A stretch of DNA of 64,000 nucleotides from Podarcis liolepis (taxonomy: Eukaryota): the NCBI GenBank assembly GCA_965112155.1, contig OZ218106.1. One strand, 5' to 3'. This document shows positions 4,271 to 63,342 of this stretch, piece by piece (position 1 is the stretch's first letter; the number at the start of each line of letters is the position of its first letter). The notes under the pieces are model-generated. The model did not search any database. It was given only the letters and a program-made list of their open reading frames with translations, and was not told where the DNA came from. Both the position numbers and the translations under genes were made by a program.

Positions 4271-6487
4271 CTTTAGTGGGGCATCTCCTAAGCTCTGGAA
4301 CTCCCCATCCACTGAAATTAAGGAACCACTTTTGCTGTCTTCTTTTTGGCACCTGCTAAGAACTTTCCTGTTTAGGAAAGTCTACCTAGACATGTAAAGC
4401 TGACACATATTTTGATATATATATATTTTAAAAATCAAACAGTCAGACTATTTGCAATAAGGAAAGGGGTGTGGAATAACATTTGCTTTGAGGGAGCATC
4501 ACCTAACCTCCTTACAAACAAATCAGAATGACTGATTCTAATTAAATATCTCATTAAATAGTGCATAAATGACAGGGTGAATGCTCAATAAACAGCCCAT
4601 CTTGAAGCACCTGCAATTATTATTTATTAATTTTATGAGCTCTTGTGCTCAGGCGATGCTTATGGGATTCCCACAAGCATCTGCTTGGCCACTGTTGAGA
4701 ACACGATGCTGGAGTAGATGCTATGTTAAGGTGAAATATATGTGAGATTACCTGTTCTGGATCTTAGTGTAGGCTGAAGGGACACTTCAGTTATTTGCCC
4801 TTCTGTTTGCATAATCAATAAAACTATACCAATCCACTCCCCACAAAACAAAACAAAACCCAAGGTGTAATTGCATTTCTGTCCTATTAATGACTCGAGG
4901 AAGTGCCCACAATTCTATAACCAGGAGCTGATCCTCTGGGAAGCAGGGAATTCTCTATCCAAGCAAATGGAGATGCTAAACTGATTCTTCTCAACAAGAA
5001 ACAGCCACCCATTGCTTAGTGAACAGTGGCTCTTATTTTTGCCTTTCTTTCTGCCTTTCTTTCCTGGCTGACTTCAAGTTGGTCCAGCTTGGACTGATAG
5101 GTATTGGTACAAGGGAGGCATGGTCCCATCAGCCTGAGTCTAGGGAAAAGGGAAAAGCGATTTATATGTGTTCTATATGCGACATAACATTGTGCCACCA
5201 GGTGGCAATGTGGAGCCCCGTTTTTCTCCACCTGTTTTCCCTGTTTAAATTTATAGCGCTTTAAACTGAAACGCTTCTTTGATGTGTTTAGATCCAGCCT
5301 AGGACTCTTTTGGGATTTCAGAGTTCTGTGGGGGGGGGGATGGTAACTGAATGGGCAGCCATTGAATTTTGTTATCCCTGCTTTGTATCTCTGGCTGATT
5401 TACACATTCATGACCAAATTGTTGTCTTTTGCGCTTTTGGAACAATGGAAAGCAACGTGGAGGGGCCACAAACTGCCTCAGCATTAGCTTTCCATTCCTC
5501 AAGAAGACTAAGGAGAGGCAACGGGGGACACATGTTTATACACATTTTCAAAGCATTTTTATTTATAGCAGCTAATATGTACTTTGGCTAACCCTACTGT
5601 AATAATAAAGAGGGGGGAAGCTGGGGTGGTCTTTTCTCACACAAAAGGAGAAGTTAATTGGCTGTGTTCACCGAAGAGTGATGTGCTCGGCAGCAGTTCC
5701 ATGCTAGTGAATGGAAAAGCTACAAAGACAAATGAGCTGGACCTCAGGATGGGGGTGGGAGTGGGAACCCAGAAAAAGAGGGAGTAGGGGCTGAGGTGGT
5801 GTGAAATTGGCACTGGTACTAAACGAGAACGAAGTTAAAATGCAAACTTGAAATACCCTTAGCAACACTACCCTTTAAAACAATCATTGCAGTTATTTTC
5901 AGCCAGGACTGCTGCTTTAGGTAGTCATAGCTCTCTCTTTCTCTCTCCTTCTTTCTACAAGTATAGTTAAATAGCTCCTAATCCAGGAAAAAAACATTGT
6001 TAAGATGGAACAGTTGATGTATTTGTGATCCCCCCCCCAATTGTAAGAATAATTATTGGTAAAGTCTATCATTCCCTGACCTAGCTGCCTGATGGGAGTT
6101 GTACCCCAAAATGTTTGGAAGGTACCAGTTTCTGGAAGGGTGGTCTAGTTTGAACCTTTATATTTGGATATATACAAGGCATTTCTGAAAATTCCACCAA
6201 TTGTCACACCAAAGAACTATTGATATGTCCAGAAGATTATGGGGACCTTTGCTAATGGGCCTCTCTGGAGCACCATTGCAGAGCCTTGGTCTACTGCTGG
6301 AGTCCCTTCCTTGTATCATAAATTACGTTAATAGTATCAAAAAGATGAGCTCCGCTGTGCTATTTCCCTGTGCAGAGAGAATGGCGTGCTTTTCAGAAAA
6401 CGGCTTGAAGCAGTAGCTATTGTTCGTGGTTACCCCTCTTCTCTTGCAAGTCTTCTAGAAGACTCAGAAAAGGCAAGGAGCCAGGCT

Positions 6488-7318
6488 CAGTGGCATAGCG
6501 TGGGGGGTGCCAGGGGTGCCGGCCGCACCGGGCGCAACATCTGGGGGGGTGTGAGTCCAGAGGGAAGGGACAAGTTCCTTCCTCCGCCGGGCTCCCCGCC
6601 GCCACCGCCAGCCTTGCGCCCTAGCGCGCGCGCCCCGCCACCGCCGCTGCGGCTGCGCTCCACTCACTGCTCGCAGGAGGAGCAGCTGCTGCAGCAGCGC
6701 TGATGCCGCCACCGATGCCTGGCCGGGCACGGGCAGCCTCCGCACCCCGACGCCACCGCCATCCCCTTGGCCCAGCCACAGGCGGTGGCTGCTTCTGCCG
6801 ACTGGGAGGGAGGAGAGCTCCGAGGGGCCTCGCCGCGCCTAAACCCTCCGAGAGGAAGCCGGCAGGCGGGCGAGGGTCTCCCGGCAGAAGGGGGCGCCGC
6901 TGGCTCCGGCTCTCAGCGCAAGTCTCAGCCGCGGGGGGGGGGGGAGGACGGAGCATGGCTGGAAGCCCCCGGACCCGGCCGGGAGGAGGAGAGGCACTCG
7001 CCAAGCCCGGATCTGGAGCTCCACCTACAGCCCAAGGAGAGGAGGGGGCGGGGAGGCGCCTGAGGGGAGGTGGCTTCGGCTGCTTCAGCCCGCGGGGGCT
7101 CCACAAATAATAAATTTAATAAATTCCTGCTGAGCCTTTGGGGGGGGTCCTTGGCTCCTTCGCGCGCCCCCAGCCCCAGTGGCATAGCGTGGGGGGTGCA
7201 GGGGGGCGGGCGCATCATCTGGGGGGGCGCGCTCGCACTCGAGTGCTAAAATCCACGGGTATGGGGGCGCAAATTACTTGCCTTGCCCCGGGTGCTGACA
7301 ACCCACGCTACGCCACTG
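6488..7318. mobile_element. Non-autonomous hAT-superfamily DNA transposon with GC-rich internal cargo
   Basis: 17-bp TIRs CAGTGGCATAGCGTGGG / CCCACGCTACGCCACTG (1 mismatch); perfect 8-bp TSD GCCAGGCT at 6480-6487 and 7319-7326. Confidence 0.88.
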
Positions 7319-10300: not shown

Positions 10301-10436
10301 CAGTATCAGCACTATTACTACTGCTAGGTTCAACCCAAACTAAGTTCTTCTTTGGTGAGCACCTTAACTCTGTTGAAATCAACATGAAAAGTGAGACATG
10401 TATTAAGTCCTGTTGATTTAGATCAAAGGTCTATTA

Positions 10437-10649
10437 CAGTTGACGCTTGGGTTGCGAATGCGATCCGTACGGGAAGCACGTTCACAACCTGCAGTGCCAC
10501 ATCACGATTCAGTGCTTCTGTACATGCACAAAGCACGATTTAGCATTTCTGTGCATGCGCAAGCGCTGAAACCCAGAAGTAACCCATTCCGGTACTTCTG
10601 GGTGCGGTGTGGTGCGCAACCCGAAATCGTGCAACCCGAAGCATGACTG
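10437..10649 (+). mobile_element. Tc1/mariner-type MITE, family B
   Basis: TA|CAGT...ACTG|TA termini, imperfect TIRs (GCTTGGGTTGC / GCAACCCGAAGC), internal palindrome CCAGAAGTAACCCATTCCGGTACTTCTGG; second copy at 33526-33786. Confidence 0.82.
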
Positions 10650-11895: not shown

Positions 11896-13012
11896 TTGTG
11901 GTGGTTTAGTCGTTTAGTCGTGTCCGACTCTTTGTGACCCCATGGACCAGAGCACGCCAGGCACTCCTGTCTTCCACTGCCTCCCGCAGTTTGGTCAGAT
12001 TCATGTTTGTAGCTTCGAGAACACTGTCCAACCATCTTGTCCTCTGTCATCCCCTTCTTCTTGTGCCCTCAATCTTTCCCAACATCAGGGTCTTTTCCAG
12101 GGAGTCTTCTCTTCTCATGAGGTGGCCAAAGTATTGGAGCCTCAGCTTCACGATCTGTACTTCCAGTGAGCACTCAGGGCTGATTTCCTTCAGAATGGAT
12201 ACATTTGATCTTCTTGCAGTCCATGGGACTCTCAAGAGTCTCCTCCAGCACCATAATTCAAAAGCATCAATTCTTCGGCGATCAGCCTTCTTTATGGTCC
12301 AGCTCTCACTTCCATACATCACTACTGGGAAAACCATGGCTTCAACTATACGGACCTTTGTTGGCAAGGTGATGTCTCTGCTTTTTAAGACATTGTCTAA
12401 GTTTGCCATTGCCTTTCTCCCAAGGAGCAGGCGTCTTTTAATTTCGTGACTGCTGTCACCGTCTGCAGTGATCATGGAGCCCAAGAAGGTAAAATCTCTC
12501 ACTGCCTCCATTTCTTCCCCTTCTATTTGCCAGGAGGTGATGGGCCCAGTGGCCATGATCTTCGTTTTTTTGATGTTGAGCTTCAGACCATATTTTGCGC
12601 TCTCCTCTCTCACCCTCATTAAAAGATTATTTAATTCCTCCTCACTTTCTGCCTTCAAGGTTGTGTCATCTGCATATCTGAGGTTGTTGATATTTCTTCC
12701 AGCAATCTTAATTCCGGTTTGGGATTCATCCAGCCCAGCCTTTCGCATGATGAATTCTGCATATAAGTTAAATAAGCAGGGAGACAATATACAGCCTTGC
12801 CGTACTCCTTTCCCAATTTTGAACCAATCAGTTGTTCCATATCCAGTTCTAACTGTAGCTTCTTGTCCCACATAGAGATTTCTCAGGAGACAGATGAGGT
12901 GATCAGGCACTCTCATTTCTTTAAGAACTTGCCATAGTTTGCTGTGGTCGACACAGTCAAAGGCTTTTGCATAGTCAATGAAGCAGAAGTAGATGTCTTT
13001 CTGGAACTCTCT
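11896..13012 (-). mobile_element. BovB (RTE-clade) LINE, 5'-truncated; RT C-terminal half (open frame 12047-12916)
   Basis: Translation GVRQGCILSPCLFNLY, NLRYADDTTL, GLKLNIKKTKIM, YGSESWTIKKADRRRIDAFELWCWRRLL, QYFGHLMRR matches BovB RT; 3' end GAGTCGGACACGACTAAACGACTAAAC. Confidence 0.96.
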
Positions 13013-13484
13013 CCAATTCCTGCAATGCAGTAATCTCAGCTAAAGCATCCATGACAGATGGACACCCAACTTCTGCTTAAAAGCCTCCAACAAAGGAGAG
13101 TCTGTTCCACTGTCGAACAGCTCTTACTGTCAGAAAGGTCTTCCTGATGTTTAGTTGGAATCTCCTTTTTTGTAACTTGAAGCCATTGGTTTGAGTCCTA
13201 CCCTCCAGAGCAGGAGAAAACAAGTTTGTTCCCTCTTCCATGTGACAGCCCTTGAGATATTTGAAGATGGCTATCATATCTCCTCTCAGTCTCCTCTTTT
13301 TCACGCTAAACATACCCAGCTCCTTCAAATGTTCCTCATCAGATTTGGCTTCTAGGCCCTTGATCATCTTGGTTGCCCTCCTCTGCACACATTCTAGCTT
13401 GTCAATATCCTTCTTAGATTGTGTTACCCAGAACTGGATGCAGCATTCCAGGTGCGGTCTGACCAAGGCAGAATAGAGTGGTAC
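13013..13484 (-). mobile_element. CR1 LINE 3' fragment (extreme tail displaced to 11863-11895 by the BovB insertion)
   Basis: ORF 13077-13466 [12 protein letters not shown]...[21 protein letters not shown]...[16 protein letters not shown] is CR1 ORF2 C-terminus. Confidence 0.93.
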
Positions 13485-16244: not shown

Positions 16245-17140
16245 CCATATTGTCTCCCTGCTTATTTAACTTATATGCAGAATTCATCATGCGGAAGGCT
16301 GGGCTGGATGAATCCCAAGCCGGAATTAAGATTGCTGGAAGAAATATCAACAACCTCAGATATGCAGATGACACAACATTGATGGCAGAAAGTGAGGAGG
16401 AATTAAAGAACCTTTTAATGAGGGTGAAAGATGAGATCACAAACTATGGTTTGAAGCTCAACATAAAAAACCCCGAAGATCATGGCCACTGATCCCATCA
16501 CCTCCTGGCAAATAGAAGGGGAAGAAATGGAGGCAGTGAGAGATTTTACTTTCTTGGGCTCCATGATCACTGCAGATGGTGACAGCAGCCATGAAATTAA
16601 AAGACGCCTGCTTCTTGGGAGAAAAGCAATGACAAACCTCGACAGCATCTTAAAAAGCAGAGACATCACCTTGCCAACAAAGGTCCGTATAGTTAAAGCT
16701 ATGGTTTTCCCAGTAGTGATGTATGGAAGTGAGAGCTGGACCATAAAGAAGGCTGATCGCCGAAGAATTGATGCTTTTGAATTATGGTGTTGGAGGAGAC
16801 TCTTGAGAGTCCCATAGACTGCAAGAAGATCAAACGTATCCATTCTGAAGGAAATCAGCCCTGAGTGCTCACTGGAAGGACAGATCCTGAAGCTGAGACT
16901 CCAATACTTTGGCTACCTCAAGAGAAAAGAAGATTCCCTGGAAAAGACCCTGATGTTGGGAAAGATGGAGGGCACAAGGAGAAGGGGACGCCAGAGGAAG
17001 AGATGGTTGGACAGTGTTCTCGAAGCTACCAGCATGAGTTTGACCAAACTGCGGGAGGCAGTGGAAGACAGGAGTGCCTGGTGTGCTGTGGTCCATGGGG
17101 TCACAAAGAGTCGGACACAATTAAACGACTAAACAACAAC
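16245..17140 (+). mobile_element. BovB LINE, 5'-truncated, frameshifted
   Basis: SPCLFNLYAEFIMRKAG...YADD; frameshift near 16470, premature TAG near 16815; (CAA)n tail at ~17131-17140. Confidence 0.96.
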
Positions 17141-19550
17141 ACTCATATCTATTTGGTGGATTTGGACATTTGCTTACAATACTCAGTGCATTTACTTAAG
17201 AGCAAACTCTATAGAAATTAACAATACTCTAAGGAAAATGCTTTTAGTACTGGGTTGCTCATAAACTAACTCTACACAAGTGCAAATGAATTCTCAAGGC
17301 ATTGTTGTTCACAGTCCAGTATCTTCCACTAGAAGTTTCCCAAGGTTTATTATACTCTTAGAAAATGTTTACTGCCTTTTAAATTTAAAATTATCGTACC
17401 AATTATCCAAGCTTTGTAATGCTGTGCTGAATGGAAACTCTGAACTGAGACCTGTTTAGAGTACATATATAATTAAAATGAATTAAAATGTGATTAGATG
17501 GGATATTAAGTCTTGATAGTAGGTTTATAATTTTCTGAGAAGGGCAATAAAGACAATTGGATCACAGAGATGTTCACACAACTTGAAGCTTAGTGTACTC
17601 TGATATTTATTAGCCAAAGAATATGGGTTTTACTACATGATATAAATGTAAAGCATATAAACAAAGCATGTGGCCTTGTATAAACATATAACTAGTTCAT
17701 ATAAATGTATGCATTCATTGTGTCTGAGATCCTATTATGCTAGTGTAGCCTAATTGAAAATACTAAGATTACTCCCGAGTAATGGATTTTAGGATTACAA
17801 TATGGCAATCAAGTTAAACATGGAATACTTTGATGTAAGTAGATGAAATCAAGTGGGCAATGGGACTTAGACCACATCTTCAAGATACCTTTAAAGCACT
17901 ATGATACCACTTTAAGAAGTGATTTGCCCCAAAGAATCCTAGAAACTATAGTTTGTACAGGGTGATAAGAGTTGTTAGGAGACTTTTGCAGGGCTACAGT
18001 TCCCAGAACAGTTTAACAATCAATCCTTCTTCCCAGGAAAGCCATCAGTTTTGCATACCACCAAAAGCCACCATTGCAGATTGCTGTTTCTGGCCATTTC
18101 CATTCATGGTGAATGGAATCACAGGGATGATTCACCAATTCCAGGCAGCCGTCACAGGCGAAAGAACAAAATTGGTGTATCCGATGTATGAATTTGCTCC
18201 CTGATAATGAGGCCTCGATACTAGAAGCTTCTGCAAGTACAACTTTTGTAGACATGAAAGCAGAATAACCTTAGTTTTCCTTAAGTTACACTTGGGCTAT
18301 CAACCACAATCTGTGAAAGAGGTAATGTAGGGAAAAATGTAATAACAGTGTATGAGCTCTCTTCTCGGTTTCACTGCCTAACCATGCACCAGTGGTATCA
18401 GAGACTAGTTTATCACACAGTGTATGTTAAATGATGTTCCAGTTGATGCAACCCCCTCATGCTGTGAATACATTAAAATGAAAGCAAGAGCTACGCTTAG
18501 GGAAGGGTGAAGAACAGCATTTCCCCTCCCCAATAAACCCCCCCTCCAAGGTTTCCGTCAGAATGTAGTGAAATTGATTCAGATGCATTTTTTGCTTTCA
18601 CATCAGAAAATATTGAAATATGCTCCCCGGACAAATAGCTGCCACTTTTAAAGTCTACTGTGGCTTTTCAAGTTTGATGTGGAATCCATCAGCCTGAAAA
18701 TGGGAGTGAGTAGCCATTTGTGGGGAAGGAGGAGGGAAGGAGGAAGGAGGCAGCAGCGGAAGAATCATAAGAAAAAACAGAACCTCAATGATACCATGCA
18801 TGACTAACAGAGCTTTCTCATTCATGAAGAAACTGGAATTTAAATTTCAGATCAGGAGTGATCTTTACTCCAAACCTTTTTGTAAGGAAGAGAGAGAAAG
18901 TCAACTCTGCATTTCCATGGAGATAGTTTGTGAAGCATAACGCAAACTATTGTTATGTTCGTTTCACTTCTCCAAGTGGTGAGAAGTTCAGTGTTGATCC
19001 AGATTTGGTTTCCTTTGGAATGAGATCACTGGGCACTTTTGTAATTTTTGTGGGTATTTACAACTATGTATAGGTTGATCACTGCTGGAGGCCCAAATTT
19101 CAGCTCTGTCTTTCTCTGCTTGCCTCTAGCTCAGAAGTACAGCTTGTCTTTTGCAGGGCTGCGATATTTCAAAAAGTGAAAACCCAAAGTTGTTGAGGGG
19201 AAAAAAAATGAAGGTTTTAACCTATCTTTTAGGAACAGCGCCAAAATATTGACACTTCCAATATGGGTTGACACTTGGGTTTCCATGGACATTTTAGCCT
19301 CTTTTCGAATATTCCGCCCGGACACCATTTTCAGCGAATGAATCCCGGCTATGTCTCAGACATAAGGCAGCCCTATCTTTCATTTCCTTCACCTACATTA
19401 GTTGATTCTAGGCTGGGAGGTGGCCATGTCTACCCCCAGCTCTGATTGGGCTTTCCTATTCAGAATATCACCAAAATAGTCCTGTAACAAAAAGCTGTTG
19501 TCTGGCAATGTAATTCCCATGGCAATATATCAGCTGTAGTTTACCTAATA

Positions 19551-32690: not shown

Positions 32691-33525
32691 TAACAAACAA
32701 CTAAACAGCATAATAAATAAATAAACAGAAGTAAGTGAAACGTAAGCTTTAAAAATGCCTCACTAGTAGCAGAAGCCAGATAAAACTTTGAGGAGTGCCT
32801 TTCTTTGCAGTAGCTCAGCAAGCTGCAGAGCTTGTGCTTTCTTCTTAGTTCTCCACCCTCTCTCCCTCCAACTCATCCTGCCTCTAGTAAGTATCCTTTG
32901 GAATCTAGGGAACAAACCTCCCCTTTTATTTTCTGGGTGGCTGCTTGAAAGGTGTACAAATCTGGCAGCCGGAGTCATCTCAGTTTTTCACTACAGGTGC
33001 TGGAACATCTAAGGCTGCCACAGCGTTTGGTTATGTGTGTACGAAAAGTAATAACGGGCAGAATGAAGAGAAATATCTTCAGTGTCTATGAACTGAGCCA
33101 CAGTTGCCTGTGCTGCGCCGCCTCACTGGAAAAGCAGTCCCAAAGGCTGATTTCCATTGCTGGTTTGCCTATGGCCAAAATCAAAGCAACTTCGAGAAGA
33201 GAACGTGTGCCAGTTGCTCCCCTGAGGTCATAGTTGTTGTTCTCTGTTTATAGCCAGAAGGTCTCAGCAGAATGTGCTGCAGTCTGGGGAGCAATTTGTT
33301 TATTCCACAAGAATGTGTGAGTTTGTGCTCATTTAGCTGGGTTTTTTTTTTTAAATGAAAACTAACACTCCTACTACACATGCTAATTTCAAGCAGAGTA
33401 AATGCAGATAGACACCAAGGTAGGTCAATTCAGAAGAGACAATCATTTACCTATGCTAGGTAGAGCGACGTTATAGCAAAGCTCCTGGGCAATGTATATT
33501 GTGAAGTAATAATAATAATAATTTA

Positions 33526-33786
33526 CAGTGGACGCTTGGGTTGCGAATGTGATCCGTGTGGGAGGCACGTTCGCAACCCACAGCATTCACAACCCACAGC
33601 GCCGCGTCTGCGCATGCGCAGGTCAAGATTCAGCGCTTCTGCGCACGCGCAAAGTGCAATTTAGTGCTTCTGCACATGCAAAAGCGCCGAAACCCGGAAG
33701 TAACCCATTCCGGTACTTCTGGGTTCAGCGCGGGGCACAACCCGAAAACACGCAACCTGAAGAGTCTGTAACCTGACGTATGACTG
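33526..33786 (+). mobile_element. Tc1/mariner-type MITE, family B
   Basis: TA|CAGTGGACGCTTGGGTTGCG...TGACTG|TA; inserted into a (TAA)n retroposon tail. Confidence 0.85.
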
Positions 33787-36587: not shown

Positions 36588-37585
36588 TTTATGTCTATAT
36601 GATTGCTTCTGTGCTCTTGCTGCATAAGTGCAGATAAAGAACATGTAGTGATATAGGCTTGTAGTTCAGCATGGGGTTGTCAGCTGTTACACATAAAAGT
36701 CTAATCTGAATCAGCTGCTCATAAGAAAAACAAATCTACATTCTGTCACAATGAAGGAAAGGTTAGTTTTGGGTGTGACTGTACTTTTCCACAGTAACAA
36801 GCAAGGATTAGCACACCTGATTTTACTGCACGGTGATGCAGTAAAAACAAACAAAAACCCCTCCTTAATTGCAGTGAAATCTGTTTCTTTTTGGGAAACA
36901 CAACACCTTGAAAATGAAGGGAAATTAAAGGGAAATGTTGGAGAAAATATTACTTGGATTATGTTTGCATCTTGAAACTGGTGCTCTCATGGAACGGTCT
37001 TGTTCTGAGTCCATCGGATCAGCCACCATGCAAGCTTTTTGTAGGTTTCAATATAAATTCTTAAAGCAAACTAACAGAATGCGTACATTTAGGGCAAAAC
37101 TACATGATGTGAGAAAAACAGACCTGCTCCTAAGATGTGTTGGGTTGTCCCCCTTCTGCCCGACAACGTATAATAAAAGTTGGCCTGATGCCATTGTTCC
37201 ATTCCTTATGGCTCAGTTCACATTTAGAGTACCATGTTCAGCTCCAGGTTTCTGAAAGATGGTGACCAAATTGAGAGTGTCCAGAGGTGAGGAGCCAAGA
37301 TGCTGAGAGGTATTTAGACTAAAATCAAGTGCAGTATTTAAAGTGCAATCAAGGTAGGCAGTGGGGTGTGATACAGCACAATGGAGCGACCTCTACTCTA
37401 CTCTGGCAGCCCCAATGCTCAAAGCAGCTGGAAGGTGGAAGAGTCAGGCAAATTGCCATGCCAGCCTGGAGCCTCAAATCAAGTCTGATGTTGTCAAATG
37501 ATGGAATTGATCCAAGGCCACTTTAGCTCATCCCTGCTCCCACACTGTCCTATTTTGAGGCTTTCTGCAGGCTACCACAGGTGTG

Positions 37586-37811
37586 CAGTGGTACCTTGGG
37601 TTACAAACACCTCGGGTTACAAACACTTTGGGTTACAGACTCCGCTAACCTGGAAGTAGTACCTCGGGTTAAGAACTTTGCCCCAGGATTAGAACAGAAA
37701 TCGTGCGGCAGTGTGGCGGCAGCAGGAGGCCCTATTAGCTAAAGTGGTACCTCAGGTTAAGAACGGTTTCAGGTTAAGAAAGAATTAAGTTCGTAACCAA
37801 AGGTACCACTG
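37586..37811 (+). mobile_element. Tc1/mariner MITE, family A
   Basis: CAGTGGTACCTTGGGTTAC ... GTAACCAAAGGTACCACTG|TA; left flank TG instead of TA. Confidence 0.87.
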
Positions 37812-37954
37812 TACTTCCATCAACCCACATACCTGTGAAGTAGCAGAGGAGTCACTCCAGGAGTGTCAGCTGGCGGGGCTAGGTGGTAACACAACTTCAT
37901 TCAATCTCCCCACCACACATCTAATGGGATTTGGGTTGCAACCAAAGTCCTATA

Positions 37955-38310
37955 TGGACTGGGTATGTTTAACCTGGAGATGAAAGTGGTCTTTAAATAT
38001 CTAAAAGACTATCATGCCAAAGATGGAGCAGGCTTGTTGCCTGTTGTTCTAGTGCCCAACTAGAATCAATGGTGGATAATGGCAGGGAAGCAGACTGTAG
38101 TTAAATGTTAGGAAAGACTAGCTAATGGTAAGAGCTGTTCAACAGTGAAATAGACTCCTGAGGTGGCAAACTCTCTTTCTCTGGGGATGTTTAAGCAAAG
38201 ACTAATTCATCATTGGTTGCAGACACTGTAGTTACACCCTTGTTACAGATCATGCATTGACAGAGATTTGGAGTAGATGACCTTCCAGGTCCTTCCAGAT
38301 TCTATGTTCT
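37955..38310 (+). mobile_element. Old CR1 3' fragment (upstream piece at ~37215-37320)
   Basis: GGGTATGTTTAACCTGGAGA...TTTAAATATCTAAAAG...GTAAGAGCTGTTCAACAGTG...TAGATGACCTTCCAGGTCCTTCCA...TTCTATG. Confidence 0.72.
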
Positions 38311-38600
38311 ACAACTCATTCAAATACAGATTGCAACCATAAAATAGAAAAATCCTAAGATACAATCAAACAACTTCAAAAGGCAGTAGGAATGCGAATA
38401 CCTCAGTTCTGAAAGTTTTTAGGCAGCTGTGGTTTAATGTAGCTCCATTCAGGGACGTGCCAGACTGAAATGTTAATGAGAATATTTGTAGTCTATGATG
38501 GAAGAAGTTGCATTGCGGTTCGAGGACCCGACCCCCGTGTGGTGAAATAAAGACACAAGGACACGTGATATATGGTTAATGGGCAAGAAAAGGCCACAAC

Positions 38601-38606
38601 TTTATT
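38601..38606 (-). terminator. Polyadenylation signal AATAAA of the element
   Basis: CCAATAAAGTTGTGGCC followed ~45 nt later by GT/T-rich GTGTCCTTGTGTCTTTATTT; a second AATAAA at 38658-38663 lies inside the structured domain. Confidence 0.6.
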
Positions 38607-38911
38607 GGTTACAGCAATGAAAAGGTATTGGCTTAGGCATTGGATCGAAGCAAGTGGTTTATTCACCAGTAGGTGGAGCCTGTCGATGCTAATCCGACTC
38701 TAGGCTCACCCCTGTTGTCACCGAGGGTCGTGCCAAGGCCTCCCGCCAAGCAGGCATCGGACGGAATACACGACCCCCAGATTCCTTTAACGGAATACCC
38801 CTAAAACATTGAAGGCATAGGCGATGGCCAAACCTAGCACTTCGACACACCACAACACATTATTCCAATGCCTAACCGCCACCCGAGCCAAAAGGCTCGC
38901 CGCCAATACCC

Positions 38912-39484
38912 TCACTGCTGCAACCAATCCCAGATGCTTTTGCTGACACTAGCTAGCCAAATGTCGTTCCCCGAGTCCGATAAGTGAACGCCATCATTCC
39001 GGTATAGAGCTTGGTCGTTAATACGGATACGATCATGCCGGATGACACGGCCAAACATAAAGCGCACCCAACGGGCTACCGCCCGATTTACGAGTTTCCT
39101 GGTTCTTTCAATGGCCAAACAACTTTGCGCACCGCGCCACTCAATTCTTTTCAGGAAGGAGGACCAGAAAACCGTCGTTCTGGGGCACAAGGCTGCCAAT
39201 GCATTCAAGTCTCTTTTTATGCTCCCCAACAAGTCTGCACTCTTTCTGCTGGTTAGGTCATTCTCTCCCAACTGTATCACAATAGCGTCGGGAGGGCCAA
39301 AGTTGGCTACTTTCTCCCGCAGCAAAGGCATCAGCTCTTCCCATCGCATGCCTCTTCTCGCAAACCAGGAAACTCGGACATCATTTGGGAGGCCAAGATT
39401 AGGTGCCAGGCCGCATCTTGCTGCACGTACGTGGGCCCAATGAACAATACTGTGGCCACAGATCCACACATTTCTTCTGAGCAA
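38912..39484 (-). CDS. SGNH/GDSL hydrolase (esterase-like) ORF of the YR retrotransposon
   Basis: Block I VWICGHSIV (Ser), block II RRGMRW (Gly), block III QLGENDL (Asn), block V NDGVHLS (Asp/His); 190 open codons; starts at TTG just after a splice-acceptor consensus. Confidence 0.92.
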   Translation of the reverse strand: MLRRNVWICGHSIVHWAHVRAARCGLAPNLGLPNDVRVSWFARRGMRWEELMPLLREKVANFGPPDAIVIQLGENDLTSRKSADLLGSIKRDLNALAALCPRTTVFWSSFLKRIEWRGAQSCLAIERTRKLVNRAVARWVRFMFGRVIRHDRIRINDQALYRNDGVHLSDSGNDIWLASVSKSIWDWLQQ

Positions 39485-39486
39485 AG

Positions 39487-39523
39487 CTAGGGGTAAAGAC
39501 AGAGAAGACGGCAGGTAAGTGAG
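39487..39523 (-). promoter_or_regulatory. Predicted 3' splice acceptor of the hydrolase ORF
   Basis: Minus strand: CTCACTTAC (branch-like) CTGC CGTCTTCTCTGTCTTTACCCCTAG|CT TTG CTC; phase-1 entry. Confidence 0.7.
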
Positions 39524-39543
39524 GCCCAGCGACTGGTCGCGTA

Positions 39544-40344
39544 CTAGCGAATGTAAGACTTATAAGCATTAGATCTCCACCGGCCCATCTCTTTGATCCT
39601 ATCCGCTGGTAGACCTAAGTGCGCAGCCGTGGTTGCGGCACCAATCCTAAAAGAGTGCGCAGCGTACTCCTGGGCAGATAGTCCACAGGCCTCGATCGCC
39701 TTGCGCAGTACTCTGGTGAATTGGTATCTCAACATGGGCGACCCGTCCTCATGAATCAAAAACGGACCTGGGCCAGGTGGCCTAAGGTCGAGATACCGCC
39801 TAGTGTCCTTTACCGGACATGGGCCCTGCTGTGTTGACGCTGAGAGTTTGATCAGGACACCCTTGCCAGCCTGATCGGTCTTGGACTGTCGTATGAGCAC
39901 TGAAACGGAAGAGCTAGACAGCTGCACATCCTTGCAAAGGAGTCCGTGGTTTGAACCCCGTGCACTAACTTCAAACACAACCTCCCCAACCCTCAGTGCG
40001 CCAAAAAAGGCGATAGCATATGCTGCAGAAAAAAGGCGTGCTTCGAATCTGGACCAGCAAATCAACCTGAGTTTTTTGCGAATTTGAGACAACAACCCGT
40101 AAGAAATCGGCTTACGGCCTTCGTCCCTGGGAGGCTGTAACCTGCTCCAACCCTCGATTGCCCTACGTATCATGAAGTCGCTACACGGGTCATGAGCAAA
40201 TGTAGCTTTTGAAAAGAAGCTGATAGCTGCTACATGAATCTTTAAAGTTTTTGGGGCACGTCCCAGGTCGTCGAGATGTGAAAGATACTGCAAAACGTCA
40301 TTAGGAAAGATAACTTGGTTTTGGGTTGTACCAATGTACCTCAA
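39544..40344 (-). CDS. Tyrosine recombinase (DIRS/Ngaro integrase), N-terminally truncated, no start ATG
   Basis: Catalytic motifs FFGALRVGE (R), RQSKTDQ (K), CPV, HSFRIGAATTA (HxxR), MGRWRSNAYKSYIR (W,Y); 266 open codons; track start codon is TTG. Confidence 0.93.
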   Translation of the reverse strand: MRYIGTTQNQVIFPNDVLQYLSHLDDLGRAPKTLKIHVAAISFFSKATFAHDPCSDFMIRRAIEGWSRLQPPRDEGRKPISYGLLSQIRKKLRLICWSRFEARLFSAAYAIAFFGALRVGEVVFEVSARGSNHGLLCKDVQLSSSSVSVLIRQSKTDQAGKGVLIKLSASTQQGPCPVKDTRRYLDLRPPGPGPFLIHEDGSPMLRYQFTRVLRKAIEACGLSAQEYAAHSFRIGAATTAAHLGLPADRIKEMGRWRSNAYKSYIR

Positions 40345-42059
40345 GACTAAATGAAAAGAAGTATCATGGAAGTCATAGCAGTTTCTAAATATGCAATTCT
40401 GAATCTAAATGCTGAGATCAGATGGTTGCATGTGATCTGCTTGCCTGCCTGTATCTGAGTTGTGATGAGACTACAGAATATGTGCATATAGCCCTCAAGC
40501 CTCAAGGAGATACTGTCAGCAATAGAACACTGGCAAACAATGCAAATTCAGTGAGTAAGGTGAGAGGTCAAGTTGGTTGTGGGGGGAAAACCCAACCATA
40601 CAGGATTTGGGAACAGGAGGAATGTGTGCTGTGCAGGTAGACAAAAAGAAAGTTAAGCAGATATTTTAAGTCCTGCCTATCTAGTTTAAGCATCTATTTC
40701 ACCAGAGGTGGGGTTTTTTTGGAAGGCATTTACTGTATTTCCAACATAGTGTGTATTGCCTGTGTTTTAAATATTCTGGAGTCTTTCATGTGGTGGTGGT
40801 AAAGTCTCCCCATCAAATTTATTAAAAAAATTAAATTCCATACCTTGCCAGCAATTATTTTTACAGGACGCAAGACTCATTTTAGAGACCTGTTATAAAC
40901 CAATCTGAAAATATGGCTTTATAATGGAAAGCAAGAGAAACCTTTAATTGGTGCAGTGTTAGTGAGCACTGTTATGACACTGAGCCCATCCATAGGGTAA
41001 GACTTTCCTGTACAGTTCTGCTGACTATACACCTGCTCGGTCAAATGCACTCTGAACAAAATGTCAAAGAATTTCTTTTGACTTAACGATGTTTAATCTT
41101 TTTTTTTTAATCTGTGTGGCCTCCGTATATGATTCTGGTACATGAGTTATACATATAAGTGGAGAAATGATAAAAGATGAGCAAAAACCACTGGCTAGGA
41201 AGTATTTTCTGCTGATGTATTAATTCATTTCATCTCATACGTGGTATCACCATCAAGGCTAACTAGATTTTATGAGTGGAGTCACTGAAGTGAAAATCAA
41301 GCCAATGAATCGTTTAATATGAACTAATGAAGACCAGATATAAAAGGCTTTAGTAACTGGTTTGGTACTTTAATTGTCAGGCTGATGGAAATTCAGAGCC
41401 TTCGTAAAGTAAAGCAGTGGGACTACAGAGGAGAAAGTGGAATCGCTTCACGATAATTGGTTTTAATTAAATAGCCTTATAAACAGCTCTGGTTTATGTA
41501 ATGTAAGTGCAAAAGGAGGAGTTTTTCAAGGTAAAAATAAATTGCATTTGCAAAAGGTTATAAGCAGGGCAGAGACCACCGTCATGTTTGCATTTGAAAA
41601 CATTTCTCTTTTGCTTATCACAACTAAGAACCTAATTAATGTTGCCTGGCTTCTATGAAATAAAGTAATCCTGCGGGGGTCTGAATAAAAGGATAAATAC
41701 ACCATGCTGAACAGCCCATTCTCCAGTGCAGAATTCAAAATTGTTGACTGCTGAATGTCCCCCCTCCTCGCCATCTTTAGAGCCTTCATATATTTTGTTG
41801 AATTCAAGGGATTTCTGCCCAAGTTGAGAAATGAAAACCTTCTGTCTCCTTACTCTATTAATCTTTCATGGTCCTGTGTCCAATTACCCACACATGCATC
41901 CCACTGTGAAATAATGGGGTTGTTTCATGTCCAACAAATGCCAGGATTGCTTCCTTGGAGCCTTTGAATATTAGGAGCACCACTACCTGTTGCAGATGAT
42001 CCCCCAAAGTGTTACTTCAAGTCCATTTTTTAGGTGTCTGGGTAATGTCTGTTTGGATT

Positions 42060-55480: not shown

Positions 55481-56125
55481 CAGCTACCATCATCCCTGAC
55501 TGTTGGGCTGAGCCTGGGAGTGATGGGCATTGGAGTTCAACAATATATGGGAAGATACAAGCTAACCACCCTGGCTGTAGCCCATCACCCTGTTTATCTG
55601 TGCTAAAATACGGTGGAACACAGTTTTATTTTTCTACAGCCCTTTCCGGTTGTGTGCCTGAATGATTTATAGAGCTAAGTTACACAGCTGAAGCGCTAAA
55701 TAATAAATAATTGCAGAGGAAGCGTGAAATCAAGAGACGTACAGTCAAGAGAGTGTGAGGGAAAGGTATGCTTTCTGCTGAGATTTGAAAGTAGATGGCG
55801 ACCAGACAAACCGCAGGGTGATAGGAAAGCTGTTCCAGATGGCAGCAGATTGTATATATATATATATATATATAAATCCCCTCTCTAACCACAGGTGGTC
55901 AGTTGTGTGCAGGGACGATGTGTACAGCCAAAGGGTTAGACAAGCAGAACATGCAAGGAGCAAAGTAACATTTCATAAATGAACGAGACTGATTTTGGAT
56001 CCCATCCTGAAATTGGAAGAGGAAGGGAATTGGGGCCTGATGCATGTTTTCCCCCTACAAAGATGCTGGAAAAAAATTGCTTCCCCCACTTCTTTCTATG
56101 CAGTTTTGGAATAAAAGAGACAGTA

Positions 56126-56333
56126 CAGTGGTACCTCGGGTTACATACGCTTCAGGTTACATATGCTTCAGGTTACAGACTCCGCTAACCCAGAAATAGT
56201 GCTTCAGGTTAAGAACTTTGCTTCAGGATAAGTACAGAAATCGGGCTCTGGCGGTGCGGAGGCAGCAGGAGGCCCCATTAGCTAAAGTGGTGCTTCAGGT
56301 TAAGAACAGTTTCAGGTTAAGAATGGACCACTG
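56126..56333 (+). mobile_element. Tc1/mariner MITE, family A, with internal deletion near right end
   Basis: TA|CAGTGGTACCTCGGGTTAC left end; right end reduced to GGACCACTG compared with the 61846 copy. Confidence 0.85.
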
Positions 56334-60371: not shown

Positions 60372-61845
60372 CGTTAGGGCAAACTATTAATGCATATTGA
60401 GTGAGGAATATGTGTCTTACATAATGCCCGTCATTTTGACAGGTGGAGGGACTGTGGTGGAAGGCTTGTATATTGCAAGGGCCCTGGGATATGGGTCACG
60501 GGGATCACTGTACACAAGGTAGTGCATCTCTTTTGCAGAATCCAGAAGGCCACAGGTGACAATGTTTGCTTTCACCAAACCAGTGGATTAGAAGAAAGCA
60601 TGTTCCATTGTACACTGGGGGTGGTATGGTGGGTCCTTTTAGCAGCAGCCCCTTGCACAAAGGATGAGATGCTGGCAAATGCCTCTAAGAAATACTGCAT
60701 ACACCTGTATACACCATTCAACTATCGAGGAAAACACCCCCAGTGCTCTGAGTCTAAGGGAATGCCATCAGTGCAAAGGCTATGCCAATGCTGGTGACCC
60801 TTGTCACCGAGAATAAGACCTAAATGCATCCACATAGCTCCACTTTTTCATCTAGTTCTATGCTGGGTTGAATGTTCCCCTGTCTATATGCATGGTGTCC
60901 AAGGGATCTTGTAGTTGTGTGTTGCTTACCCTCCTTCCTCCTTAAGGTCCCAGGGTCTGTTACAGCAGTTAAAAAAAAAGAAGTATTAAAAACAGTTGAA
61001 AGCAACTTAGAATCACAGAAATATGGTAGGCCCTAAAAATATACACCCCAAATGTCAAAAGCCACAGTAAAGAGGAGCCTCTTCAGTATTTGCAGGAATT
61101 GTATAATGAAGGTGCCAGACACAGCTTTTAAAGGTCTTACACTTTTAAGACTTCCCAACCTTCCTATAAACCTTCCGAAATTAAACAACACCGAAAAGCC
61201 AGAAAAGCTCCCTCTCATTATAGATAATGCTATAAATACAGACTTCCGTCAAGACAGCCTAGCACATTTTTTGGTTCAAGAAACACAACCTGCTTATGTA
61301 TGTAAATATTCTTGCCTAACTTTCCAGGAGTGATAGCAGAATCATCCACTTCTCGCACACTCTCCATAAGCAGAGCGCAGAGTTCCTTCCATGTCATGTT
61401 TGTTACTGGTTGCCCGGAAAATGAAATGGATGAATATGATCAACAAATTTCAAAAAGTTTAGCTAAGGTCATTGTGGCTTATGAGCACAATGCATTTTAT
61501 GTGCAAAGTCAGTTATAAAGCAGTCGGGATATTTTGAAAGTTGATTGGCTCTCAGTCCTTACTGAAGGAGATTATTTTGTTCCTAAGGGCCAAGCTACAC
61601 ATTATGCAGGAGACCTGTGATCAATATCCTGATGTATGTATATATTTGTAACTGAAATGCAGCCACATAGACTGCCGGTATCTTTGAGGCAATGGCAGAG
61701 AGGAGAGGGTGCTTAACCCTTTCTCTCCCTGCACAATTTATTTTTTCTGATGACATAGACCGATTTCACATAATTTTGCTCCCAAAAGCGGGCATATCTG
61801 TTGTTTAAGAAGGGCAAGACCGCAATTATTAAAATATCAGTGATA

Positions 61846-62071
61846 CAGTGGTACCTTGGGTTACATACGCTTCAGGTTACAGACTCCGTTAACCCAGAAA
61901 TAGTACCTCGGGTTAAGAACTTTGCTTCAGGATGAGAACAGAAATTGTGCTCTAGCGGCATGGCAGCAGCAGGAGGCCCCATTAGCTAAAGTGGTGCTTC
62001 AGGTTAAGAACAGTTTCAGGTTAAGAACGGACCTCCGGAACGAATTAAATACTTAACCTGAGGTACCACTG
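61846..62071 (+). mobile_element. Tc1/mariner MITE, family A
   Basis: TA|CAGTGGTACCTTGGGTTA ... TAACCTGAGGTACCACTG|TA. Confidence 0.9.
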
Positions 62072-63342
62072 TATGTGATTTCATCTGTAAAACAAAATTA
62101 TCAAGTGGTTTTTCTGAGGCCCCCAGCAATTTTCAAGTGGTCCACAGGGGGGAAATAGTTTGTGAACTGGTGGCTTGGGCCATCATGCAGGAGTGATTCT
62201 TCTCTGGAAATGCTTGCAATTCAATAAAATGAAGTATATCAAACTCAGTTAGAGGTGAATGAATTGTCACAAGGTGATTTTGACGAGGTGCCAACTTCTG
62301 CCTCAGGATTCCAATTTTTTCCTCCAGTGCAAGCCTAAAAATAATTCTTATAACAAATATAAATACATATACTGCTGCTTATGTTAAACATCATCCTATA
62401 AAGGATAGGTTCGATATAAATCCAATTAAAGCCCACAGTTTAATCCCATAATTAATAAATTAAATCTACACATTAACTTCTTGTTATTATAGATTCTTTT
62501 CTACCATTGTGAAAAGCATTTTTTTTTCTGAGAGCTTTTGCTTTTTTATTGCTGTATGTATTTTTGTTTCATGCTACCCAAAATGTTTTCCCCTTGGATA
62601 ATTCATGAATCTGAAGAAAATTCTTTGTTGGAGAGAATAAGATAGGGTAGGTTTATGGATAATACTGTGTGTTGTATTTTTCTGTTCAACATTAGCAGAG
62701 AATGATTCTTAGCTCTTATCACTTGACAGGAATTATTCCGCTTTTATCCACAAATGGGTGTCTCATTCATTCCTAGCTCAATCATAAGCAATGTTACTCA
62801 ACTTTTCAGTTCTGTAGCTTATCTAAAACTGTTTCTAGCTGAAATGGAATCACTACCGGGACCCTGCATAAATCTGCATTTTAACCTGAAAGTTAAGGCT
62901 GTTTCGCAAATTCTAAGTTGTGTAATGAAGGAAGAGACATATCCCGTTCTGGGACTATCATTAGTTTTACATGTTACTGTAATATTAGACAAAAGAATGT
63001 CTTTAGGGATTATAAAAAGTTTGCTAGAGTTTTCAGTATTATATGTGCAACTGAGAAGATTAATCATTTCAAGATGGTTAATATTAAGTAAGTGTTAATT
63101 AGAATTGGTGTGCTATGATAGATAAATTAGCAATCATTCAATGAATCAGAATAAAAATTAACCATGATCTCTAGAAAATAAAATACTTTTACTTAAGATT
63201 CTTTGGGCTTTCACAATGAAGCTCTTGTTAGCATTTACTGAAGAGGTTTAGAACACACACACGACCATAGATATAAGAGACAATTTGTCTCAGTTAGTTT
63301 TAGGTAACATACATGATTTCACGCAACTTGAACGTGAGATGC

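Follow-up and report, generated by a model that had tools for sequence, protein, structure and literature searches.

The window analysed here, a stretch of 64,000 nucleotides from Podarcis liolepis (contig OZ218106.1 of assembly GCA_965112155.1), carries on its minus strand the 3' part of a Ngaro-type tyrosine recombinase (YR) retrotransposon, in which a recombinase frame is followed by an SGNH hydrolase frame and a non-coding segment. The copy is a very young, dead fragment of a known superfamily, its site being undamaged otherwise, and the shortening likely took place while it was inserted, a reading to which we give a probability of about 60%: the recombinase would have joined the B-repeat end of an unfinished complementary DNA (cDNA) to the chromosome, and host repair would have closed the other end. 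The parts of the element are as follows.

38515..40298, minus strand: insertion proper, 3' part of a Ngaro-type YR retrotransposon; 1,784 bases between the two copies of a 4-base motif, 1,788 including one copy
38511..38514, no strand: 3'-side 4-base motif (CATT on plus, AATG on minus); its AA likely also the terminal bases of the family; loose ends at 38513 (X23) and 38542 (X7)
40299..40302, no strand: 5'-side 4-base motif; only 40299 common with the internal sequence of the family
39544..40299, minus strand: 5'-truncated tyrosine recombinase frame, 251 codons and a stop; catalytic residues kept, start codon and first core-binding helix missing
39487..39512, minus strand: predicted phase-1 splice acceptor, with a pyrimidine tract and a TAG, directly 5' of the hydrolase domain; predicted exon start at 39486
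38912..39486, minus strand: SGNH hydrolase (esterase) coding segment; S, G, N, D and H kept; stop at 38912-38914
38513..38911, minus strand: 3' non-coding segment, probably a single B terminal repeat; depth step relative to the YR part, no internal direct repeat
38623..38911, minus strand: predicted folded RNA domain with a long outer closing stem; z-score -4.3, 0 of 200 shuffles, for a region picked after the arms were seen
38601..38606, minus strand: AATAAA as a predicted polyadenylation signal, some 90 bases from the end of the element; GU-rich stretch after it, no poly(A) at the junction

Coding content and source family

As to the coding content, the original prediction, made from the letters of the window alone, described two adjacent open minus-strand frames retaining the catalytic residues of a YR and of an SGNH hydrolase, and this is confirmed by the frame list (stop-free at 39544-40404 and 38912-39559, overlapping at 39544-39559), by Pfam matches that both fall below the curated cut-offs (Phage_integrase, E 2.6e-4; Lipase_GDSL_2, E 1.7e-6) and by the residue positions (R 39993, K 39882, HxxR 39657/39648, W 39579 and Y 39555 in the recombinase; S 39451, G 39352, N 39262, D 38995 and H 38986 in the hydrolase). 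The CpG-rich character of the insert within CpG-depleted DNA also holds, with observed/expected ratios of 0.79 in the insert versus 0.20 and 0.19 in the 2 kb on each side, as does the absence of gag, of reverse transcriptase (RT) and of RNase H from this copy. Neither a gag-like ORF1 (first open reading frame) nor an RT/RNase H precedes the YR, host flank starting at 40303, and the copy is therefore filed as a fragment of a Ngaro family rather than as a whole member. The recombinase core, previously called intact, is so in its catalytic domain only; the gene is not. The element-derived part of the frame is 251 codons long, the remainder being host flank that is open by chance; alignment to whole relatives begins at residue 97 of the nearest whole protein (P0001), residues 1-96 are missing, and with them the first helix, a conserved one, of the core-binding domain, and the first in-frame methionine is at 40173. 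The recombinase gene is thus probably not expressible as it stands.

The nearest named protein matches for the window, at the top of 297, are Podarcis muralis models, at 92, 86, and 81% identity. One P. muralis model (P0270) combines a YR 98% identical to that of this copy with an RT/RNase H N-terminus (E 1e-73 to ORF2 of the metagenome locus L011), and this identity, along with the empty sites in all three DNA samples described below, supports the earlier proposal of a Ngaro-type origin and of recent activity of the family. Other relatives are represented by 80 loci from metagenomes, in 16 of which a hydrolase is encoded behind the YR, and RT is found upstream in 48 of the 51 loci with at least 1.6 kb of upstream room. 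Two of the hydrolase-bearing loci (L011 and L012) present the order gag-like ORF1, RT/RNase H, YR, SGNH hydrolase, and no adenine methyltransferase (Dam), a domain whose absence sets Ngaro apart from DIRS-like and PAT-like elements, is found in ORF2 of either, ORF2 ending just past RNase H. Pairs of A and B repeats are recognized in six of 45 long loci (at least 4 kb), all distant relatives and none with a hydrolase match, and the hydrolase-bearing L011 shows a 55-base A1/A2 match only. Since the relatives show ORF1, RT/RNase H without methyltransferase, YR, hydrolase and, in a few distant loci, split repeats, the plan of the family matches that of Ngaro (PMC9210276, PMC3783388), whose structure is A1-ORFs-B1-A2-B2 (PMC9210276).

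The YR of this copy differs from that of P0270 at six of 251 residues, and the hydrolase differs from its closest model, P0122, at five of 186. Synonymous changes make up 13 of 21 coding differences, versus 28-29% expected (over 40 of 198 rows). Selection has thus acted on the family; the open frames of this copy require youth only, being expected at a protein divergence of 2-3%.

Boundaries, empty site and age

Three DNA runs (of three organism codes, X1, X4, and X7) and one RNA run were aligned to positions 38170-40750. Comparison with an empty site had been suggested along with the original prediction, and the site is empty in contigs of all three DNA runs. In X1 and X7 it is exact: 38510 is followed by 40299 within a single contig, 1,788 bases are left out, four letters fit both sides, and no flank was lost at insertion. 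In X4, the jump is from 38514 to 40312, with 10 other letters between, resembling diverged flank. These contigs move the left limit of the element from 40346, as first proposed, to 40299-40302. No contig joins flank to element among those listed. Contigs drop rare variants, so that the empty sites are compatible with presence of the insertion in the same animals, and X1 possibly represents the other allele of the source animal. Over the flanks, the empty contig of X1 agrees with the window at all but one of 670 bases (0 of 218 and 1 of 452 differing); therefore, the insertion is polymorphic or restricted to a very close lineage.

The two ends of the insertion are of different character. At the 3' end, family depth stops at 38513-38517 and copies diverge past the terminal AA, and this is therefore the natural end of the family. 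At the 5' end, family contigs from each of the three DNA runs extend past 40299, those of X1 and X4, along with a loose end of X7, aligning to this copy up to 40299 and no further, and the loose letters of X7 matching upstream residues of P0001. A breakpoint shared by many copies, raised originally as a possibility, is not seen, nor do ends cluster at 40299 among the loose ends listed; as far as seen, the 5' break is private to this copy. Two of the 51 relatives with upstream room (L045 and L064) also begin inside the YR, at other positions. In both (L045, 2342-3258; L064, 6001-7480), the YR starts mid-domain after unrelated DNA, and L064 holds two B repeats.

The 3' segment is a very abundant repeat. 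Summed depth relative to the flank is about 10-85 for the YR and 56-198 for the hydrolase, and it reaches 4,500-5,200 in the final 350 bases. From the YR part to the 3' segment, depth thus increases 61- to 451-fold in the three DNA runs, a gradient that, by the caveat of the tool itself, is not a copy number. The segment extends from the stop of the hydrolase to the point where family depth ends, includes the AATAAA and is free of internal direct repeats; it is therefore probably a single B repeat. Terminal repeats were originally reported as absent, and indeed no direct repeat inside the 3' 400 bases and no repeat pair in or around the insert were found; this is better described as one B without its partners. 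The fold of the whole 405 nucleotides has a z-score of -2.7 (2 of 100 shuffles). The segment matches no Rfam family (one chance match at E up to 10), and no hammerhead or hepatitis delta virus (HDV)-type ribozyme was found in it by eye. The RNA run has 140 reads on the stretch, most of them on the 3' repeat, with one orientation prevailing (31 vs. 5). Fifteen RNA reads exit the 3' repeat at 38877 into other upstream sequence; given these and the depth in the DNA runs, an abundant, transcribed solo or non-autonomous form of this repeat is likely present in these lizards.

How the truncated copy arose

Integration of YR retrotransposons has been modelled on whole circles, a model not directly tested; DIRS-1 has mostly linear cDNA of various sizes, and the RT of this element works in trans (PMC7192593). 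For the copy described here, we propose that a recombinase supplied in trans, from a whole copy, would have linked a reverse transcript, still unfinished, with the chromosome at its natural B end. The cut would fall at the internal B1/A2 junction, so that one event would produce both the loss of the 5' part and the absence of A2-B2, and host repair would then close the other end inside the recombinase gene, using one base of microhomology. As the 3' terminus lies about 90 bases past the AATAAA and is not followed by poly(A), it is not an mRNA end. In RNA, such a terminus occurs only by read-through from B1 into A2, which is a copy of the recombination junction, and we therefore infer that cDNA was cut and joined there. 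In four repeat-bounded relatives, the B/A junction consists of AA followed by TG, identical to the four bases duplicated here. Out of the three explanations offered originally for a 3'-only copy, insertion of a partial cDNA fits best; a later deletion is disfavoured by the lack of flank loss, and a non-autonomous YR-hydrolase family is not supported, as family contigs pass the break. A processed, LINE (long interspersed nuclear element)-mobilised mRNA copy was also considered and is ruled out by the position of the terminus past the AATAAA and the missing poly(A) tail.

A number of points weigh against shortening at insertion by the recombinase. A single copy was analysed, and three RNA reads that pass 38513 continue with letters other than TG. 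In four whole relatives, ends and flanks have only about 0-2 bases in common; a match of four bases is thus not typical of them, and the motif duplicated here may simply be a target duplication. The locus L064 keeps both B copies despite its 5' truncation. Solo AB repeats, known along with ORF1 deletions from the Ngaros of Cafeteria (PMC8547959, section 11), may explain the excess of the 3' segment. A 4-base duplication with one to two bases of microhomology per end also fits repair capture at a staggered break.

Such capture, in which host repair would have patched a partial cDNA, or a copied stretch of another element, into a staggered break with no recombinase involved, we consider unlikely, if worth keeping in mind. 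It is in line with the short duplication, with the microhomology (AA at the 3' joint, G at the 5' joint) and with a 4-base shared core not seen in whole relatives, but it gives no reason to stop precisely at the natural terminus, past the predicted polyadenylation signal and with no foreign flank carried along. Less probable again is insertion of a whole element that later lost its 5' part by deletion, and A2 along with one B by B1/B2 recombination. Ngaro copies in Xenopus have commonly lost repeats (PMC9210276, part 3), the solo AB repeats and ORF1 deletions of Cafeteria (PMC8547959, section 11) also speak for losses of this kind, and the TG at the left joint could represent the first bases of A1. 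However, two extra events would be needed in an insertion absent from all three samples, and the deletion would have to end about two bases from the element edge with no flank lost. A recurrent non-autonomous YR-hydrolase element, or a Crypton-like DNA transposon, is very improbable: 4-base direct repeats do bound Cryptons (PMC3212892), and both frames are open and conserved, but the YR has neither start codon nor first helix, family contigs pass the break in three runs, with no cluster at it among the loose ends listed, RT precedes the YR in nearly all relatives with room for it, and open frames are expected at this protein divergence.

Expression and role of the hydrolase

No methionine is present upstream of the hydrolase domain in this copy, the first one, at 39349, being inside the domain. 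A pyrimidine tract and a TAG, in phase 1, are found 29 bases before the glycine of the GxS motif. A blind rule, selecting the best-scoring AG within 60 bases, was applied to 15 loci and the window (L045 was dropped, as its GxS was not located), several of the 16 sharing an assembly and thus not representing 16 independent hosts. The site selected is in phase 1 in 13 of the 16, versus 76 of 147 and 47 of 111 at positions inside coding frames (binomial p 0.006; 1 of 5,000 composition-matched shuffles), and a phase-1 YAG open to the hydrolase domain is available in all 16.

Gene models point in the same direction. Among 19 longer hydrolase proteins, 12 possess a leader homologous to that of a YR-bearing model, with no YR motif of their own, three contain YR parts, one is a fusion with a host zinc finger and three are of other kinds; these are automatic gene models, not transcripts. 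Pairs of lizard models in which one leader is joined to either the YR or the hydrolase are P0006/P0129 and P0034/P0132, and at the end of the leaders stands an arginine-rich motif with serines after it. From these sequence patterns, it seems likely that in whole elements the hydrolase would be translated from spliced RNA, as a fusion with an arginine-rich ORF1 leader working like the LINE ORF1 esterase. In this copy, the leader, the donor and the promoter are gone, and the hydrolase would be made only if a host transcript were spliced into it. Three observations argue against splicing: an in-frame methionine is present within 50 codons upstream in 10 of the 16 loci, though none in the window; P0122, the closest of the hydrolase models, shows no splicing over the acceptor in its prediction; and no spliced read at 39487 was found among the reads listed, at a depth of 0.14-0.18 and from 12% of one RNA run.

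In four models (P0127, P0139, P0143, and P0198), the same hydrolase domain is fused with host proteins (by name, zinc finger protein 638-like and 318-like; by Pfam, a UEV-domain protein), an outcome to be expected from splicing of host transcripts into the hydrolase acceptor. Six models (P0121, P0123, P0124, P0126, P0137, and P0138) are very long, with four to six copies of the hydrolase domain, perhaps from tandem or nested elements.

When the same rule is applied upstream of the YR, phase 1 is found in 43 of 64 loci versus 160 of 335 control positions; this is no more than a hint of an acceptor there, as the final residues of RNase H, which are conserved, fall on the same site. A phase-1 CAG with a pyrimidine tract recurs about 95-115 bases upstream of the first YR helix, in the last RNase H codons, and the model P0004 joins a leader to the YR at that place.

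As to the protein itself, the AlphaFold model of the hydrolase has a pLDDT (predicted local distance difference test) value of 97 and matches SGNH hydrolases at template modelling (TM) scores of 0.7-0.78, and the domain is net basic (28 K+R vs. 17 D+E). The best solved match of a 35-sequence hydrolase profile is the ZfL2-1 ORF1p esterase (PDB 4C1B; E 1.5e-11, the next match being at 5.2e-7). That esterase hydrolyses esters and binds acidic lipids, and the protein to which it belongs also has a coiled coil along with an arginine-rich motif (PMC3905857); in other retroelements such esterases are encoded as extra, typically spliced, ORF3s (PMC5408684). By analogy, the Ngaro hydrolase, described as having no proven function (PMC9210276), may serve in membrane targeting of the ribonucleoprotein of the element.

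Other features of the window

No host gene was identified in the window, 41 of 42 stop-free stretches chosen from the 275 of at least 62 residues having no Pfam match; the remaining one, at 61306-61515, matches Peptidase_C98 weakly (E 0.005) and may be a host exon or a chance match. A GC-rich CpG island at 6500-7200 is probably a host promoter. Other repeats include two inverted LINE fragments (11897-13039 and 16247-17141), 93% identical to each other, one with a 330-codon open RT frame, which we take to be RTE/BovB-like; an element of about 230 bases with terminal inverted repeats, resembling a miniature inverted-repeat transposable element (MITE), in four copies (611-857, 37583-37814, 56123-56329, and 61827-62073); and another short CpG-rich repeat (33523-33762 and 10434-10641).

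Implications

The junctions of this insertion are clean and recent and come with an empty site, and many such insertions in a lizard genome would show whether the recombinase can join one end only. The conserved phase-1 acceptor, in turn, names a concrete protein, an ORF1 leader with an esterase, for what has been an orphan hydrolase. For the downstream genes of Ngaro, a ribosomal frameshift has been proposed (as quoted in PMC13003380), and splicing presents an alternative; a portable unit of acceptor, hydrolase exon and polyadenylation signal could also account for the reptile models of host-hydrolase fusions. Taken further, and only tentatively, as we regard this as rather doubtful, hydrolase-bearing Ngaros might routinely insert unfinished cDNA one-ended at B1/A2, leaving 5'-truncated, LINE-like copies with a precise 3' end, and might splice an ORF1-leader-esterase fusion convergent on the membrane-binding LINE ORF1p.

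Comparison with known systems

The closest described arrangement is that of hydrolase-bearing members of the Ngaro superfamily (order DIRS), such as the Xenopus elements DIRS-53_XT and DIRS-54_XT (PMC9210276), in which a YR is likewise followed by an overlapping SGNH hydrolase frame and then by a 3' repeat region; in contrast to these, the present copy is devoid of A1, ORF1, RT/RNase H, the start of the YR and A2-B2. The excerpt of the same paper places the hydrolase in amphibian elements and does not mention splicing, whereas here the hydrolase is found in a lacertid lizard, in gecko models and in metagenome loci. With Cryptons (PMC3212892), the copy shares a YR without RT and short direct repeats at both ends, of four bases where Cryptons have four to six, which could equally be a target duplication; however, its YR is incomplete, its family is RT-linked, and there is no sign of movement as DNA. 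The great excess of a terminal-repeat segment over the coding part is reminiscent of the solo AB repeats of Cafeteria and of SIRE, which is the A2+B2 part of VIPER (PMC6681497, section 6), but this copy has coding sequence before the repeat and no A repeat.

As to the hydrolase, the likeness to ZfL2-1 ORF1p extends from the SGNH fold to the arginine-rich motif that, in the predicted leader-hydrolase fusions, is positioned just 5' of the domain. The differences are that the fold search ranks 4C1B, whose crystal form is domain-swapped (PMC3905857), only 17th, at a TM score of 0.47, and that the Ngaro hydrolase is encoded last, behind the YR, likely being joined to its leader by splicing.

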